Shown here in pieces: positions 6,055 through 38,972 of a stretch of 64,000 bases of DNA. Numbering within the stretch: position 1 is the first letter of the stretch; every line of letters begins with the position of its first letter. Both the position numbers and the translations under genes were made by a program. The DNA lies in the IMG/VR virus record IMGVR_UViG_3300007852_000001, positions 546 through 64,545 of that record, one strand, 5' to 3'. The notes beneath the pieces are model-generated. The model worked only from the letters and a program-made list of their open reading frames with translations. It was not told where the DNA came from and did not search any database. This stretch comes from a virus. Taxonomy: Duplodnaviria; Caudoviricetes.

Positions 6055-6488
6055 CAGGCCCACTCCGTGATGTCATCGATGAACGTGCCTTCGTCCACGG
6101 ACATGTGGGTGTCACCCGCAAGCGCCCAGTTCGGCGGGTCAGACATGATGATGCACCCACTGCGCTCGTCTTCTTCGACCACACAGCCACCGTACTCGGG
6201 ATAGCCGTTGTCACAGTCCATGTCAGAGTCCGCCAGCGCCCGCCCACGCGGGTTTGCATCGATAGGCACGTCACCCACGTCATGCGCCTCAAGCGGTATC
6301 AGCGCGTTGCTGACGGCCATAGGAGAGCCGTCAAGGTCGTTGAGGATGCTGCGCATCCGCTCGACGGCAGTGTCGTCGTCCTCCGACCCGTGGAGTCGCG
6401 GCAGGTTGTTCTTGACGCGCTCTTCGGTAACGTTGTCGCGGTCAGGCGATGACTCGTCATCGTTGTCGTCATCACGGCTGTCGTACAT
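6054..6488 (-). CDS. Hypothetical acidic early protein
   Basis: Cassette ORF. Confidence 0.75.
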   Translation of the reverse strand: MYDSRDDDNDDESSPDRDNVTEERVKNNLPRLHGSEDDDTAVERMRSILNDLDGSPMAVSNALIPLEAHDVGDVPIDANPRGRALADSDMDCDNGYPEYGGCVVEEDERSGCIIMSDPPNWALAGDTHMSVDEGTFIDDITEWA

Positions 6489-16376: not shown

Positions 16377-16561
16377 TGGCACAGACACCGCCTGAACGCT
16401 ACTCCCCAACGCCAAAAGACGAGCGCGAACCGTTTCAAACGTACTCGTTGATACCGCGCTGCCCGTGGTGTAAGACAGACCTCGGCCTACGTGACCGCGT
16501 ATCGTGGATTCGAGAATGTCCCGAGTGTCCATATATGTGGCTACCTCCCCGACACGAGTGA
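16376..16561 (+). CDS. Zinc-finger microprotein
   Basis: CPWC...CPEC; TGATG coupling. Confidence 0.7.
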   Translation: MAQTPPERYSPTPKDEREPFQTYSLIPRCPWCKTDLGLRDRVSWIRECPECPYMWLPPRHE

Positions 16562-16604
16562 TTCGAAAGCCTTTTACGTGGGTATCTCCTCTACTGTAAT
16601 AGAG

Positions 16605-17306
16605 ATGGAGACCACACCAGTGCGCGAACTTGAAGACCAGAAGCACCTCGTTGAACATGCCGAGGCCGAGCGAGACGTGTTCATCCTCATTGGACCGTAC
16701 GGGTCGGGAAAGTCAACCGTTGCCGACATGATAGCCGAAGAACACGACGAGCGAGTCTCGACGTTCGAGATGTCGGACTTCGTGCGAACCAAGTTCAGTG
16801 AGATGTTCGACGGCGCTGGCTGTGACGACAACGAACTTGGCGAGTGGGCGGCCAATGAAAAAGCCGTGAAGGGGCAGGACTACTTCGCCCGTGAGATGGC
16901 GAAGACTATCAAGGCCCCGCACACGCCACACGTGGCCATCAGTGGCGTCCGCTCGCCCGAAGAGGCCGTAGCCATCCGTGACGTGTTCGACGCCGCTCAC
17001 GTGTCCACTATCGCCGTGTGGACGCTTCCTGACCTGCGCTTCAGCCGCAAGTACGGCTCGGACAAGATGTCCGACCCCGAGACGGTCGAAGAGTTTCAGG
17101 AGCGCAACGAACGAGAACTGTGGGAGTGGGGCGCAGTCGAGTTTTACGCCCGCGACTCCTGCCACGGGGCAGACTACATCCTGCCGAACCACGACAGCCT
17201 GAACGACCTGCGGAACAACGTCGACCGCCTCCTCAACGGCGTCGGTCAGTTCGACGTAAACCCGTTCCCGCACGACGACTTCGAGCGTGTGGCACAGTAT
17301 TTGTAA
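16605..17306 (+). CDS. P-loop nucleoside monophosphate kinase (adenylate/dephospho-CoA kinase-like)
   Basis: IGPYGSGKST, MSDFVR, ISGVRSPEE, ADYILPN. Confidence 0.8.
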   Translation: METTPVRELEDQKHLVEHAEAERDVFILIGPYGSGKSTVADMIAEEHDERVSTFEMSDFVRTKFSEMFDGAGCDDNELGEWAANEKAVKGQDYFAREMAKTIKAPHTPHVAISGVRSPEEAVAIRDVFDAAHVSTIAVWTLPDLRFSRKYGSDKMSDPETVEEFQERNERELWEWGAVEFYARDSCHGADYILPNHDSLNDLRNNVDRLLNGVGQFDVNPFPHDDFERVAQYL

Positions 17307-21556: not shown

Positions 21557-22165
21557 ATGGAAGCAATTGACTCACACGAACTGTACGGTGACATCACGCG
21601 TGACGAGGCCGTTCGTCGCCTGCCCGAAGTAGAGGACATCCGCGACGAAGAGTTGCGGGAGCAGGTCATTCAGGTCATTCGGGACATGCCCGACTACTTT
21701 TGGACAGCGCCAGCCTCGTCGCACCATCACCCGCCCGAGCATCAGGCTCGACACGGCCTCTGGCTGCACACGAAGCGGGTCTGCACGGCCTTTGAGCGCG
21801 TGGCCAAGTCGATGGTCAAACAGGGCCACCTCGACTGGTCGGACATCGACAAGGGGCGTGCGGCCTGTATCCTACACGACATGTACAAGTACGGTATCCC
21901 TCCCACGAGAGTGAGCGGGACGAGCAACAGTCATGACATCGTGGCCGCCAACTGGCTTCGAAACCACACGGACCTGCCTGACGAAGTGTGTAATGCCGTC
22001 GAAAGTCACAACGGGCCGTGGTACGCTGGCTCACAGCCAACGAGCCATCTTCAGCAGATGGTCCACGTGGCAGACCTACACGCCAGCGACCCCGACGCTC
22101 GCATCTCTGTGAAAGACCCGCATCCTGTCCTACAGGAGAAGTTCCCACGAATCAACGAGCGATAA
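21557..22165 (+). CDS. HD-domain phosphohydrolase
   Basis: GLWLHT, LHDMYKYG, SHNGPW, HVAD motifs. Confidence 0.88.
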   Translation: MEAIDSHELYGDITRDEAVRRLPEVEDIRDEELREQVIQVIRDMPDYFWTAPASSHHHPPEHQARHGLWLHTKRVCTAFERVAKSMVKQGHLDWSDIDKGRAACILHDMYKYGIPPTRVSGTSNSHDIVAANWLRNHTDLPDEVCNAVESHNGPWYAGSQPTSHLQQMVHVADLHASDPDARISVKDPHPVLQEKFPRINER

Positions 22166-23010: not shown

Positions 23011-23925
23011 ATGGAGAAATTCCCGAAAGTCAAATATCCGAACGACCCCGAGACCGACGGCCTCAAGGCTGGTGAGGTTGTCGTCACCGAGAAACTGGAC
23101 GGTGCCAACTTCCGCTTCACGTGGGACGACGACGGTGAACTGTGGATAGGCACCCGCAACCACAAGTACAGGCATGACGACGAGAACGTTCCGAAGGCGT
23201 TCCGCCATGCCGTTGAGTACATCCGTGAGACTGTGAACTACGAGCCGCGGTTCTCGAACTACACGATGTACGGCGAGGCCATGCACTTACACAGCCTCCG
23301 CTACGAAGACGTGGACTACGTGCAGCCGTCGAAAGGCTCCGCCTACTTCGGCAGCGAGCCGAACGTCGTCGTCTTCGACGCTCTCGACAACATCACTGGT
23401 GACTGGCTACCGTGGCACAGCGTCACGGCACTCGCCAACGACATGGGGCTAACCACGACACGGGTTCTCGAACGTGGCGACCCAGAGCATGTCTCGTTCG
23501 ACGTGCCCGAAGAGTCGATGTTCGGCGGCCCGCCCGAGGGCATCATAGTTCGACGCGTCGACGGTAGCGTCCGCGCCAAGAAGGTGACGGACTCGTTCAG
23601 CGAGAAGAACGTAGTCGCGTTCAACGACAAGAATAAGGCACAGACCGACTCTGGTGAGTTTGTTGCGTCGTACGTCACGGACGCCCGCATCGAGAAGCAG
23701 GCTCACAAACTCGTGGACAGTGGCGAGTACGAACGCCTTGAGATGGCGATGATGGAAGACCTACCCCGCGAAGTCCTCAAGGACGTGATGGGCGAGAACG
23801 GGTGGGACCTTCTCACGTCGGGCGGTTTCGAGGGCATGTGGGACGACGACTTCAAGTCTGAGGTGCGGTCGAAGGCGTCGAAGAAGTGCGCTCGCGTCCT
23901 CAAGAACGAGGTAAATGCCCTCTGA
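23011..23925 (+). CDS. ATP-dependent RNA ligase, Rnl2 family
   Basis: Motif I EKLDGANF, YGEA, VFD, EGIIVR, AKKV; Rnl2-like C-terminus YVTDARIEK. Confidence 0.85.
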   Translation: MEKFPKVKYPNDPETDGLKAGEVVVTEKLDGANFRFTWDDDGELWIGTRNHKYRHDDENVPKAFRHAVEYIRETVNYEPRFSNYTMYGEAMHLHSLRYEDVDYVQPSKGSAYFGSEPNVVVFDALDNITGDWLPWHSVTALANDMGLTTTRVLERGDPEHVSFDVPEESMFGGPPEGIIVRRVDGSVRAKKVTDSFSEKNVVAFNDKNKAQTDSGEFVASYVTDARIEKQAHKLVDSGEYERLEMAMMEDLPREVLKDVMGENGWDLLTSGGFEGMWDDDFKSEVRSKASKKCARVLKNEVNAL

Positions 23926-24050
23926 TGTGTTGGGAATGTGGCTCGGCTGGCGAACTTGAGAAAGCGGAGGACAGCGACCACTGGGAGGGACGGTGCCCGA
24001 ACTGTGGTAACGAATTCGAGACCGTAATTTGGGACCGTGAATTGGAGTAA
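23925..24050 (+). CDS. Zinc-ribbon microprotein, 41 aa
   Basis: MCWECG...CPNCG; TGATG coupling to the ligase. Confidence 0.65.
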   Translation: MCWECGSAGELEKAEDSDHWEGRCPNCGNEFETVIWDRELE

Positions 24051-24117
24051 GGCCGTTGCGGAGGTACTTTCGGGGCTTGACCCCCACGGTAGTATCCGCG
24101 AAGGCGTTGACCAGAAT

Positions 24118-24135
24118 CGAAAGCCTTAATAAGGA
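24118..24135 (+). promoter_or_regulatory. BRE/TATA promoter of the ncRNA operon
   Basis: CGAAAGCCTTAATAA matches the other viral promoters; no ORF downstream. Confidence 0.7.
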
Positions 24136-24266: not shown

Positions 24267-24335
24267 GGGTTTGAAGGGTAGAACAGTGGTCGGCTCCAAA
24301 CCGACCGCTTGGGGGTGCAACTCCTTCCAAATCCA
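24267..24335 (+). tRNA. Non-canonical tRNA-Trp(CCA) with degenerate D-arm
   Basis: Acceptor GGGTTTG/CAAATCC+A; anticodon arm GTCGG-CTCCAAA-CCGAC; T-arm GGGGG-TGCAACT-CCTTC. Confidence 0.75.
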
Positions 24336-24340
24336 CTTTA

Positions 24341-24653
24341 GGGCCAGCAAAGGGCGTGGTCTGCCGCTGGCCGACAACACGACACAATATAAATGAAACG
24401 GAGTCACTGATGGTAACGAGTTAGCGGGAGCCTGTCCGACGGCCGTCCCTATGTGGCCCACGTAGGACAGGTGGGCGCTCGGTAACGTCAGGGTTAAAGG
24501 CACAGCCGCTCACTGTAATTGTTTGAGGCTATCGGCAGAACTGGTTACTCTGCCACAGAGCCTACAAGATGTCGTGCAGTAATCGGCCAGCACTGAAAGC
24601 AATAGCCGACACGGCATATCCACCAAGGTGGACGGGAAACCGTCCTGAGGCCT
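24341..24653 (+). ncRNA. ~310-nt highly structured RNA of unknown class
   Basis: Nested helices GGGCC/GGCCT, GCTGGCCGA/TCGGCCAGC, CACGACA/TGTCGTG, CTGATG-GTAA-CGAG/CTCG-GTAA-CGTCAG, CCTGTCC/GGACAGG, GGCAGA/TCTGCC, GGACGG-GAAA-CCGTCC; no ORF. Confidence 0.7.
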
Positions 24654-24664
24654 CTTTACTACGC

Positions 24665-24737
24665 GCCACTGACGCATAGAGATACGATGCACCGCCCTTG
24701 TAAGGCGGAGAGGGGAGTGTAAGTCTCCACGGTGGCT
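24665..24737 (+). tRNA. tRNA-Thr(UGU), non-canonical
   Basis: Acceptor GCCACTG/CGGTGGC+T; D-stem GCAT/ATGC; CCGCC-CTTGTAA-GGCGG; T-loop TGTAAGT. Confidence 0.85.
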
Positions 24738-24830
24738 TTAGCAGAAGCGAAAGCCACAGTCTCCACGGTGGCTTTTACGCAGAGCAGAAGCGAAAGTCTT
24801 TTTATCCCCTGTCTCCTAACGTAGGATGTA

Positions 24831-25439
24831 ATGGGACTCTTCGGACCATCCAAGTCGGAACTGGCAGACCGCATTGAGGAACTGGAAGCAACAGTTGAAG
24901 AGCAGAAGCAGCAAATGCAGGACGAAATTCTGTCACTAAAAGAGCGTGTCGACCGAAAAGAGGACGAAGCGCGGAGTCAGGCAGAGAACGCTGCACAGAT
25001 AGCCCACGCAGTTGGTCGTATTCACACCAACAATTTCAAAGAAGTGCAGGACAAGGACGGCGTTGTCGAAACGCTGGACGAACCGCGGCTCGCGTGGAAG
25101 GCGACTAACAACAACGTGGTAAAACTCCTCATTCCCGAGGGGGCACGCGTCGTGCATCCGTGGAAGAGCGATGTGTCCCGCGGTAGGAAGAAGCGCACGG
25201 ACGAGGCTATTCCCGTTGCCTTCTACGACGTAAAAAAGGGTGGTATCATTTTCTCTAAAAAGCGAGATGAACAGCCGAACATGATGGTGTCTGACCGCTC
25301 GAAGAAGGACAGTATGTTCGAGTACAACATCGGCGAGAAAGCCACTCCGAACAAGCCGCTCAACACGCGTCTTGACAAAGAGTGTACGTCTGGCATCCAC
25401 TTCTTCACCACGGAAGAGAAAGCCGTCAAGTGGTGCTAA
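24831..25439 (+). CDS. Coiled-coil protein with DUF5758-like C-terminal domain
   Basis: LLIPEGARV...KKRTDEA...YNIGE...ECTSGIHFF; less acidic than neighbours. Confidence 0.65.
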   Translation: MGLFGPSKSELADRIEELEATVEEQKQQMQDEILSLKERVDRKEDEARSQAENAAQIAHAVGRIHTNNFKEVQDKDGVVETLDEPRLAWKATNNNVVKLLIPEGARVVHPWKSDVSRGRKKRTDEAIPVAFYDVKKGGIIFSKKRDEQPNMMVSDRSKKDSMFEYNIGEKATPNKPLNTRLDKECTSGIHFFTTEEKAVKWC

Positions 25440-36810: not shown

Positions 36811-38637
36811 TTACTGTTGCCTCGTGTTGATTGTAATACTGGTGTCCGTCGCGTCCGTCTGTGCAACCTCAATCGGGTCTATCTGAATGACTTCGATACC
36901 GTCGACGGTTGTGGACGTGGGTGTCGTCTCAAGTGGTGCGCCGTCCACAGCTTTGTCGAAGGCAATGACACCAGTGTCATCTCCCACAATAATGTCGCGT
37001 AGCACGTCGATAATCACATCCTTACCGACCTGAAGGCCGATGGTTTCGGCACCGCTCGACTCCGTACCGCCAATATAACGGGTAATCTTGTCACGGAGGG
37101 GGTCGTTGCCAATATAACTCCCGTTAATAACGAGGTCCAGCGTCATGTCAATGTTGACGGCCGTGGGGCGAGAGAACTCAATCTGGCGCTCTTGGTCGTT
37201 CGTGTCGGACACGACCGTCTCAGTCACGGACGTGCCGTTCACGCCTGAATAGTCACGGGCCGTCACGGCCTTCTTCTCGAACAGCGCCTCGGCGACCTGC
37301 TGGTCAGTCCCGCCAAAGACGACGGCCTCAAAGGAGTGTGGCGGCAGTCCGCCAGTCCCAGTGTTGTCGCTGTCCGTCTTATTCTCGAACATCGTGACAG
37401 ACGTAACCTCGGGAATACTGTTACGAATGTTGCCGACGATAGCATCGTGGGTCGCACTCCCACCACCAGTTGTCACGTCGACCGCACGGTCTCGCAGTGC
37501 GGCATCAGTCTCTTCTTCCTGTCCGACACGGAACTGGTTACCCTCTCGGTCCGTAAAGTCCGTGGAGCCTGTCGGATACAGGTTTGTGACCGTGTTCACT
37601 CCAGCGGGCGGCGAGGGAAGTGCCGTTAGTGTGTTCGCACCAAGGTTGCTATCGGGGCCGCCCTCAACCGCACGAATGTTAGCGGACGTGGCGCTCATGG
37701 TGTAGAAGTCGAGGTTTTTCGTACCGTTCGCATCACCGCTCTTGAAGCCAGCCGCACCGCGCTGGTAGGTACCGTCTTCGCCACCGAGAGTGGTCAGTTC
37801 GCTCCCGTTGGCGTCTTTGACCGTTACGCCAATGTTGTCGGTGATGTTCCAGTCCAGTTCGGCCTCGTAGTACGCGTCGGCATTGAGCGTGACGGAGGCC
37901 GTGTCGATAGTTGACGCGACACTACCGTTGTCGACGCGTTCGATACGCACTTCGTTTACGGCCTCGTCAAAGGCAATCTGATAGTAGTTCGAGGCGTCTT
38001 CCTGTACAGCGAAGGTAAGAATCGGCACAGTACCCGCTGTGGGGCGCGCATGGCCGTGCAGAGTCGTTCCTTGGCCGATGTTGATGGATTCATCGTATAT
38101 GTGTGCGCCCGCCGTAGCGTCCAACTGGAGCGCATTTGAGCCATTATATACGTTTGTCGACACAATAGACGCACTGGCCGTATCGCCCGAGAACTCTGTC
38201 AGGTCACCGTCCTCAAAGTCGTTGACCAGTTCGAGAGTGGTGACCTCGCTGGTTTCGAATGTAACGGGGTCCGTGCCAGCCGTCTGCACCTCAGTCCCAC
38301 GCTGAATGATAAAGTCCTCCTCGACCTTGTTATTGGACGTAAATCGCTCGACCCCAGTGGCCCTAATCGCATTTCTGCGCTGTAGGCCAAGCAGCGCCAC
38401 AACGCGTTCGAGGTCACGACCAGTGGCCGTCTCGATAAACGCAGAGTTGTACACCTCGCTGATGCTTTTTTCTTGGTTTTCGCTGAGAACCGTACCAAGA
38501 AGGTCTGCAAGTTTGGTAAACACTGACGATTCTGTCAAGTCAATGTCCTGTCCGAATTCTACCTGTAGCTCGGACTCGATAGCGTTCTGAATCTGGTCGT
38601 CTGTTAACTGCCGATATTCTCCGTTTTCAATGGACAT
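36811..38637 (-). CDS. Baseplate J-like protein with inserted beta-sandwich domain
   Basis: TATGRDLE, GQEEETDAALRDR, LPPHSFEAVV. Confidence 0.9.
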   Translation of the reverse strand: MSIENGEYRQLTDDQIQNAIESELQVEFGQDIDLTESSVFTKLADLLGTVLSENQEKSISEVYNSAFIETATGRDLERVVALLGLQRRNAIRATGVERFTSNNKVEEDFIIQRGTEVQTAGTDPVTFETSEVTTLELVNDFEDGDLTEFSGDTASASIVSTNVYNGSNALQLDATAGAHIYDESINIGQGTTLHGHARPTAGTVPILTFAVQEDASNYYQIAFDEAVNEVRIERVDNGSVASTIDTASVTLNADAYYEAELDWNITDNIGVTVKDANGSELTTLGGEDGTYQRGAAGFKSGDANGTKNLDFYTMSATSANIRAVEGGPDSNLGANTLTALPSPPAGVNTVTNLYPTGSTDFTDREGNQFRVGQEEETDAALRDRAVDVTTGGGSATHDAIVGNIRNSIPEVTSVTMFENKTDSDNTGTGGLPPHSFEAVVFGGTDQQVAEALFEKKAVTARDYSGVNGTSVTETVVSDTNDQERQIEFSRPTAVNIDMTLDLVINGSYIGNDPLRDKITRYIGGTESSGAETIGLQVGKDVIIDVLRDIIVGDDTGVIAFDKAVDGAPLETTPTSTTVDGIEVIQIDPIEVAQTDATDTSITINTRQQ

Positions 38638-38972
38638 TAATCACTCACCTCTAGTGTGAAGTTGTCGTCGCCAACAACTTCGGCCGTAATCTCGACCGTA
38701 TCATCGCGTCGGTCGAACTGTTCAATCGTCACATTACGCACTTCTGCCAACTGCGGGTCCTCGTCAAGTCCTTTACGAATACGCTCTTCGAGGCGGCCAA
38801 TATTCGTACCAGTAATACGCCCACCGATGAAAGCCGAAATTTCGTCCAGTACGTCGATGCCGATGGACTGCCGCAACTGCTGTTTACCACTGACGAGGGC
38901 AAGGTCGTTGCCAGTGTCGAGATGAATATCTTTTCCCTCGTTAAGTTTAAGGTCTGTTGGGTACTCTACCAT
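38637..38972 (-). CDS. Baseplate gp25-like protein
   Basis: DLALVSG..QLRQSI; size and synteny. Confidence 0.7.
   Translation of the reverse strand: MVEYPTDLKLNEGKDIHLDTGNDLALVSGKQQLRQSIGIDVLDEISAFIGGRITGTNIGRLEERIRKGLDEDPQLAEVRNVTIEQFDRRDDTVEITAEVVGDDNFTLEVSD

Follow-up and report, generated by a model that had tools for sequence, protein, structure and literature searches.

Virus-encoded tRNAs are a known kind of gene, and the described examples closest to those considered here belong to two tailed viruses of haloarchaea, Halogranum tailed virus 1 (HGTV-1, KC292026) and Haloarcula tailed virus 2 (HATV-2, Soleiviridae, MZ334525). The annotated tRNAs of HATV-2 are Thr(TGT), Val(TAC) and Ala(CGC), encoded upstream of the family B DNA polymerase gene (PolB). 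Few nucleotides in biology are as strongly conserved as pseudouridine 55 (Psi55) and G18. The two form a tertiary pair in the tRNA elbow, and Psi55 has been described as universally conserved (PMC4810234). Here we describe a tRNA-Trp(CCA)-like element (E1) and a tRNA-Thr(UGU)-like element (E2) in which this pair appears to be replaced by A18-G55. Both lie in a 64,545-bp IMG/VR virus record (IMGVR_UViG_3300007852_000001) with direct terminal repeats, of which the stretch analysed, called the window below, comprises bases 546-64545 (64,000 nucleotides). The gene content of the window includes the family B DNA polymerase, a helicase and lectin-type tail proteins. By PolB its nearest isolates are HATV-2 (37.4% identity) and HGTV-1 (35.6%), with the Hafunaviridae next at about 27%.

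The tRNA-Trp, tRNA-Asn, tRNA-His and tRNA-Asp of HGTV-1, like E1 and E2, are encoded by related haloarchaeal myoviruses and have G55 together with AG in place of GG in the D-loop. The HGTV-1 tRNA-Trp further shares with E1 the anticodon, the discriminator A73, the first base pair G1-C72, the GGGT start (5' strand) of the D-arm and the T-loop type. The HGTV-1 G55 tRNAs have U8 and complete D-stems, whereas E1 is missing the four bases of the D-stem 3' strand and E2 has U56 and A8. The HATV-2 tRNA-Thr(UGU), tRNA-Val(UAC) and tRNA-Ala(CGC), and a tRNA-Val(UAC) in the IMG/VR viral contig L003, occupy the same neighbourhood as E1 and E2, that is, the replication module upstream of PolB. Among them the HATV-2 tRNA-Thr(UGU) has the anticodon of E2 and a U56 paired with A19, and the L003 tRNA-Val lies in the same slot as E1 and E2, with an RNA ligase gene on one side and a DUF5758 gene on the other. 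These tRNAs are canonical (U8, U55, G18; 50-66 bits), and in this E1 and E2 differ from them.

More distant parallels exist. Phage tRNAs reportedly escape anticodon nucleases through changes in the anticodon loop. They resemble E1 and E2 as viral tRNAs that depart from the host sequence at a site a nuclease would need, but in E1 and E2 the anticodon loops are standard and it is the elbow that is changed. Mitochondrial tRNAs that lack the D-arm use co-evolved organelle factors and tRNA-Pyl a dedicated synthetase; we know of no such factors or synthetase in haloarchaea. E1 is like these tRNAs in that it has no D-stem, no G18 G19 and no T-Psi-C and could form an extended anticodon stem, but unlike them it has a Trp anticodon and Trp identity elements. 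The tRNA-like processing elements of the mascRNA type are, as E1 and E2 appear to be, tRNA-shaped modules in a longer non-coding transcript (PMC4810234); these mimics need not keep an anticodon or identity elements, whereas E1 and E2 keep both.

Results

Two tRNA-like elements with an altered elbow

E1 and E2 (Table 1) were read directly on the sequence and in model alignments. In E1, the acceptor stem GGGTTTG/CAAATCC has 7 bp, one of them G-T, and is followed by A8 at 24274 and a D region, AGAACAG, with AG and no GG. The anticodon stem of 5-6 bp closes the loop CTCCAAA, with CCA at 24296-24298, and the T-arm has a 5-bp stem (GGGGG/CCTTC) and the loop TGCAACT at 24316-24322, in which position 55 is G (24317) and C56 is retained; the discriminator is A. 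In E2, the acceptor stem GCCACTG/CGGTGGC is followed by A8 at 24672, a D-stem GCAT/ATGC with the loop AGAGATACG, again without GG, an anticodon loop CTTGTAA with TGT at 24699-24701, and the T-loop TGTAAGT at 24718-24724, where G55 (24719) is followed by T56 (U56); the discriminator is T (U73). The minimum free energy (MFE) structure of E2 is a full cloverleaf at -27.8 kcal/mol. Both anticodon loops are standard (C32 U33 ... A37 A38), and that of E2 is identical to the loop of the host-type tRNA-Thr(UGU), CTTGTAA. A preliminary description of this DNA had reported A8, G55 and AG for GG in both tRNAs, a tRNA-Trp of 69 nt almost devoid of a D-stem, and intact acceptor and anticodon arms with discriminators A (Trp) and U (Thr), and on all of these features our reading of the sequence and the model alignments agrees with it.

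How unusual these positions are can be seen from a control set of 31 aligned tRNAs, 30 from Halorussus and the viral tRNA-Val of L003. T54, T55, C56, A58 and G18 were invariant, GG was present in the D-loop of 31/31, and U8 in 30/31, the exception being a tRNA-Thr(UGU) with G8. Against the canonical set of U8, G18 G19, U55 and C56, E1 has A8, no GG and G55, with C56 kept, and E2 has A8, no GG, G55 and U56. As to the G19-C56 pair, therefore, E1 retains the C56 side and E2 has U56, for which the partner would be either G19 (wobble) or A19, the latter as in the HATV-2 tRNA-Thr. The D-loop of that tRNA reads G18 A19 and so provides a compensated 19-56 pair. For each oddity of E2 an annotated tRNA-Thr(UGU) gene of the group offers a precedent, since that of HGTV-1 has A8 and that of HATV-2 has U56 together with A19.

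The identity elements are also kept. U73 is a determinant for the tRNA-Thr of Haloferax volcanii, and A73, G1-C72, C34 and C35 are described as determinants for archaeal tRNA-Trp (PMC9976931); E2 has U73, and E1 has A73, G1-C72, C34 and C35.

Detection of the elements

At its default settings ARAGORN, a check that the preliminary description had proposed, called no tRNA in the window and hence neither element. Relaxed (80%) settings gave matches to both, which were discarded as noise since the 76 calls in the window compare with a mean of 62.75 in 20 simulated sequences. Rfam at gathering thresholds likewise returned no tRNA match in the 64 kb. The curated gathering score of the tRNA family RF00005 is 29 bits. 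When E-value thresholds were applied, E1 scored 27.7 bits, below this cut-off (E 3.2e-5 for the genome), and E2 scored 34.7 bits (E 2.3e-6), the latter in a 91-nt scan only; in the 801-nt, 64-kb and genome scans with RF00005 the speed filters dropped E2. A covariance model of our own (R2), built from 18 Halorussus tRNAs and run filter-free on both strands of the whole window, gave 33.0 bits for E1 and 30.8 bits for E2, with the next-best match in the 64 kb at 11.7 bits. From this gap we conclude that there are exactly two tRNA-like elements in the window, both well above chance. Since a filtered R2 search overlooks G55 elements, the absences reported below for other genomes are based on filter-free scans only.

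Covariation of A18 and G55 in related viruses

The filter-free scan of HGTV-1 covered its tRNA cluster at 41-55 kb, and 36 sense-strand matches were aligned after two antisense low-score matches had been dropped. G55 was found in four of the 36: Asn (T-loop TGCAAGT), Trp (TGCAAAT), His (TGCGAAT) and Asp (AGCATTA). All four have A18 G19 in the D-loop (AATTAGTA, AATAGAA, AAAAGTTA and AAAAGTA), whereas GG was found in 29 of the 30 evaluable U55 rows (Fisher's exact p = 1.1e-4). There are 32 U55 rows, two of which have no aligned D region, and the lone exception to GG is a trimming artefact in a class II Leu tRNA. The changes from G18 to A18 and from U55 to G55 are therefore coupled. The four G55 tRNAs are the only Asn, Trp, His and Asp matches in the scanned cluster, and the tRNA-Asn and tRNA-Trp score 57.3 and 39.7 bits. 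The tRNA-His and tRNA-Asp of HGTV-1 (L283; 9627-9697 and 11306-11376, minus strand) score 20.3 and 29.8 bits on the haloarchaeal model, and the AGCATTA T-loop of the tRNA-Asp is very unusual.

A filter-free scan of HATV-2 (L162) found an unannotated Tyr-type tRNA-like element of 33.8 bits at 38420-38492 on the minus strand, with A8, A18, the D-loop AGTAAGAAA, the T-loop TGCATAT (G55), the anticodon GTA, C1-G72 and A73. At 38602-38645 on the same strand is a weak acceptor/T-arm minihelix with the T-loop TGCGAAT (11.8 bits, E 0.58), and the rest of HATV-2 gave canonical T-loops or no match. Both the Tyr-type element and the minihelix are preceded by GGGACGCCGACA and lie under the annotated hypothetical coding sequence gp57 (38344-38622), a call that may be spurious.

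With TGCAACT and AGAACAG in E1, and TGTAAGT and AGAGATACG in E2 (where the register is ambiguous), the two elements of the window combine G55 with AG for GG in the same way as four HGTV-1 tRNAs and one HATV-2 element. The T-stems of the G55 tRNAs are all different and each tRNA retains its own amino-acid identity elements, and therefore the change sits in several tRNA lineages and not in one copied arm. On these alignments, G55 with A18 looks like a covarying, lineage-specific elbow variant rather than random decay, so that the comparison with other haloviral tRNAs, which the preliminary description had proposed, supports its suggestion of selection. No G55 element was found in full filter-free scans of HRTV-25, HJTV-2, HCTV-5, HHTV-2 and HHTV-1, which gave canonical T-loops or no match. 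HRTV-25 (L291) has two degenerate tRNA-like elements at 6326-6394 and 6099-6163 on the minus strand (26.9 and 19.5 bits). Their T-loop is a normal TTCGA, their D or anticodon regions are disrupted, and as relics they are distinct from the G55 class.

In our literature search neither the elbow variant nor its covariation was found described for viral tRNAs, the 2013 HGTV-1 genome paper and the supplements of the 2026 HGTV-1 paper being outside that search. The main text of the 2026 paper does not mention a link between A18 and G55, nor does it contain the words "T-loop" or "D-loop" (PMC13532342).

A8 as a separate trait

The preliminary description had regarded A8, G55 and AG as one non-canonical core shared by both tRNAs. 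This holds for G55 and A18, which are coupled, but not for A8, which in HGTV-1 is confined to tRNA-Tyr and tRNA-Thr(UGU), whose T-loops are normal, while the G55 tRNAs of that virus have U8. A8 is uncoupled from G55/A18. The Halorussus tRNA-Thr(UGU) (L138) has G8 in place of U8 and a G at position 14, and a base other than U8 seems to be typical of this isoacceptor in the group. Canonical homologues in related viruses, which had been named as what would speak against selection, were found in part: the HATV-2 tRNA-Thr(UGU) (65.9 bits) and the L003 tRNA-Val are canonical at positions 8 and 55.

The non-coding locus and its neighbours

E1 and E2 are housed in a stretch of about 780 nt without a credible plus-strand open reading frame (ORF), bounded by the RNA ligase side and the DUF5758 gene (Table 1). 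A box resembling an archaeal B recognition element (BRE) and TATA sequence near the start of this stretch is likely to be the promoter of a non-coding transcript that contains both elements, as judged from its sequence. CGAAAG followed by a T/A-rich box is also present before the DUF5758 gene (24791-24805) and in the homologous non-coding regions of L003 and of a second IMG/VR contig, L004. The conserved 5' element that heads this predicted transcript has counterparts at 4425-4485 of L003 and 4639-4694 of L004. Its changes among the three loci are compensatory, with the outer helix reading CCCGA/TCGGG or CCCGT/ACGGG and the inner hairpin formed by three different complementary sequences. Rfam has no family for this element or for the spacer between E1 and E2, and a pattern search with the 5' element returned only L003, L004 and one chance match (L094).

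Table 1. Features of the non-coding locus and its flanking genes (positions in the window)
Feature	Position	Strand	Basis and remarks
RNA ligase gene, Rnl2-type (PF09414)	23011..23925	+	Pfam 71.6 bits, E 1.1e-19; directly upstream of the non-coding locus
Small zinc-ribbon-like ORF	23886-24050		After the RNA ligase gene
BRE/TATA-like box, CGAAAG CCTTAATAA	24118..24132	+	Read by eye
Conserved 5' non-coding RNA element, TGCCCG-N9-GTACCG-hairpin-A-run-CGGGAA	24161..24221	+	Heads the transcript; common to three loci
E1, tRNA-Trp(CCA)-like element, 69 nt	24267..24335	+	Sequence read directly and model alignments
Non-coding spacer between E1 and E2, 329 nt	24336..24664	+	No further tRNA-like match
E2, tRNA-Thr(UGU)-like element, 73 nt	24665..24737	+	Sequence read directly and model alignments
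DUF5758 gene	24831..25439	+	Pfam 29.2 bits; directly downstream; bounds the locus on its 3' side, both in the window and in L003

L003 and L004 were the two useful viral loci found when an alignment of ligases was used for the search; a search with a single ligase sequence found no relatives of the locus. Their ligases are 61-62% identical to that of the window. Nearly all the ligases returned from the metagenome and genome collections were about 30% identical. In L003 the canonical tRNA-Val(UAC) (69.9 bits with Rfam, 58.4 bits with R2) fills the slot that immediately precedes the DUF5758 promoter, and the start of the DUF5758 gene follows it. In L004 (ligase 61% identical) the locus is present and no tRNA was found in the slot. 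Since the box and the 5' element are shared and the tRNA content differs among the window, L003 and L004, the locus can be described as a non-coding transcription unit whose tRNA cargo is exchangeable.

Part of the 5' element recurs in the spacer (24433-24444), which also contains a hairpin, TCGGCAGA...TCTGCCA (24532-24555), that is found twice more in the tRNA region of HATV-2. The shared motif, TCGGCAGAAC...CTCTGCCA, lies there at about 38575-38605 and 38655-38690 on the minus strand. As a search pattern this hairpin was too short and loose, giving at least 118 matches, none of them related by blastn or tblastn. Direct and inverted repeat searches showed that the 3' end of E2, AGTCTCCACGGTGGCTTT (its last 18 nt and a T-run), has a second, exact copy 36 nt downstream (24722-24739 and 24758-24775, plus strand), the two copies flanking a hairpin and a promoter-type box that is itself duplicated. 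The arrangement resembles a terminator/promoter junction that has been duplicated, and it could be the mark of a cassette exchange. Each copy precedes a AGCAGAAGCGAAAG box (24737-24755 and 24780-24798), and a weaker third copy of both is present at 24091-24125.

The RNA ligase of the window is 32.7% identical to the annotated RNA ligase of HGTV-1 and has 115 homologues, several at 60-83% identity; the PDB holds no sequence relative. A P-loop protein (16491-17306) and an HD protein (21557-22165) were considered as RNA repair enzymes and rejected, as they resemble enzymes of nucleotide metabolism. In the unrelated viral contigs L005 and L011, distant homologues of the ligase (29-33% identity) are followed within about 1.5 kb downstream by tRNA genes (5795-5868 in L005; 4832-4904 and 5027-5101 in L011), an arrangement that hints at a recurring neighbourhood of ligase and tRNA genes.

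Discussion

We consider it reasonably probable that E1 and E2 are tRNA genes of the virus and represent a lineage-specific class in which the elbow contact G18-Psi55 is replaced by A18-G55. Under this proposal both elements would be part of a promoter-driven non-coding transcript between the RNA ligase and DUF5758 genes, with a cargo that differs among relatives, and would be released from it by the RNase P and tRNase Z of the host, the CCA being added by a host enzyme. E2 would then be charged by the host threonyl-tRNA synthetase and would read ACA, a codon that is commoner in the virus than in a haloarchaeon. The A18-G55 pair would hold the corner between the T-loop and the D-loop together and at the same time eliminate U55 and hence Psi55, and the leading idea for the class as a whole is that it would be insensitive to host factors that need a U54-U55 T-loop. 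E1 would belong to the same class, being like the tRNA-Trp of HGTV-1 minus the 3' strand of the D-stem. ACA accounts for 13.7% of the Thr codons in 42 viral ORFs and for 5.6% in Halorussus. This use of ACA fits the usual role of viral tRNAs, as does the fact that Thr(UGU) and Val(UAC) recur in the group, and E2 probably works as a tRNA-Thr for ACA codons. E1 is probably a Trp tRNA of the A18-G55 class in which the 3' strand of the D-stem has been lost and which is either crippled or put to some other use.

Several observations weigh against this proposal. The Halorussus of the codon comparison is a stand-in and not the real host. The scores of E1 and E2 (27.7-34.7 bits) are low compared with 43-75 bits for Halorussus tRNAs on RF00005 and 50-66 bits for the annotated tRNAs of HATV-2. 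E1 has no complementary 3' strand for its D-stem, which does look like damage, and its MFE fold is a rod of -28.4 kcal/mol with no cloverleaf; a fold in which the acceptor and T arm are constrained has a 9-bp anticodon stem and, at -25.3 kcal/mol, is about 3 kcal/mol worse than the rod. E2 has a G49-A65 mismatch at the base of the T-stem in addition to U56, and its 9-nt D-loop can be read at positions 18 and 19 as either A18 G19 or G18 A19, so that its fit to the A18-G55 rule is ambiguous. The locus of L004 has no tRNA, and the cargo is therefore dispensable. Neither BLAST searches of the 2-kb region and of the single elements against cultured phages nor DNA patterns in IMG/VR found a close homologue of E1 or E2, and purifying selection on the two copies is therefore not measurable. 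The exact and degenerate pattern matches that IMG/VR did return were chance matches in unrelated coding genes (a bacterial phage repressor region in L002 and low-GC phage genes in L115-L117). Furthermore, a tRNAscan re-analysis of HGTV-1 lists 34 tRNAs, with 3 putative pseudogenes and none for His (PMC13532342), an omission that is probably explained by the low score of the tRNA-His.

The low scores, together with the missing D-stem of E1 and the T-stem mismatch of E2, could also mean that the elements are decaying pseudo-tRNAs, functionless leftovers of cargo at a fast-changing locus that inherited their shared oddities from odd viral ancestors. The locus itself would suit such an origin, as it holds a canonical tRNA-Val in L003 and is empty in L004, the duplicated 3' end of E2 points to recent rearrangement, and degenerate relics are known from HRTV-25 as well (26.9 and 19.5 bits). 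We nevertheless regard decay as unlikely, since in both elements the acceptor stems, the anticodon stem-loops, the 7-nt T-loops and the identity elements described in PMC9976931 are intact. The relics of HRTV-25 retain a TTCGA T-loop, so decay alone does not yield G55, and in HGTV-1 the paired change of G55 and A18 is found in the sole Asn, Trp, His and Asp matches of the scanned cluster. A role for E1 and E2 purely as tRNA-shaped processing signals, at which RNase P and tRNase Z would cut to free the 5' element and the 329-nt spacer as non-coding RNAs, with no part in translation, appears to us quite improbable. It would agree with both elements belonging to a single non-coding unit that has a promoter-like box of its own and a conserved, covarying 5' element, with the acceptor/T-arm stack being the best-preserved part of E1, and with tRNA mimicry in end maturation as described for cellular RNAs (PMC4810234). 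The G55-loop minihelix of HATV-2 (TGCGAAT), which lies in a similar region with the same 12-nt motif upstream as the Tyr-type element, points the same way, weak as it is (11.8 bits, E 0.58). Processing, however, would need neither the anticodon loop nor the matching discriminator nor G1-C72, all of which are kept; L004 has the 5' element without any tRNA-like element, so that the former is independent of the latter; and the choice of Thr(UGU), paralleled by Val(UAC) in L003 and by both types in HATV-2, fits a supply for A-ending codons.

The third alternative places the cause of G55 in the host, as an escape from a tRNA-cutting defence that needs U54-U55, with the adjacent RNA ligase as the repair half of the response. 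A CRISPR-associated Schlafen nuclease has been described that cuts tRNAs just 5' of U55 and whose cutting depends on these bases, a single mutation of U54 or U55 abolishing it; the fate of phage tRNAs under this nuclease was left open by its authors (PMC13462974). Of 61 genomes sampled from the class to which Halorussus belongs, 13 have Schlafen/AlbA_2 domains (PF04326), and an RNA ligase is encoded both directly upstream of the locus and by HGTV-1. To our knowledge no T-loop nuclease has been shown in haloarchaea, and the presence of PF04326 is uninformative about the substrate. Moreover, HATV-2 has G55 elements but no match to the ligase of the window, G55 is found in just 4 of the 36 HGTV-1 tRNA matches, which would leave most viral tRNAs exposed, and both E1 and E2 retain U54. 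Such an escape is thus possible, not likely, and we rate it slightly below even the processing signals.

A broader scenario can be put forward, albeit one we hold to be doubtful. In the clade of haloarchaeal myoviruses comprising HGTV-1, HATV-2 and the virus of the window, the elbow swap might yield translation-competent tRNAs that are invisible to host enzymes or nucleases requiring U54-U55, and their co-transcription with a conserved non-coding RNA beside an Rnl2-type ligase might constitute a module for protection and repair.

Standard tRNA finders and speed filters overlook genes of this kind, as happened in the window and in HATV-2. Since HGTV-1 and its host are reported to be in culture (PMC13532342), the question is open to direct test. 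Natural viral tRNAs in which both partners of the elbow contact are changed would offer a seldom available way to gauge which share of the elbow is really required for translation, and A18/G55 tRNAs may represent a new viral route to shield tRNAs from enzymes directed at the T-loop.

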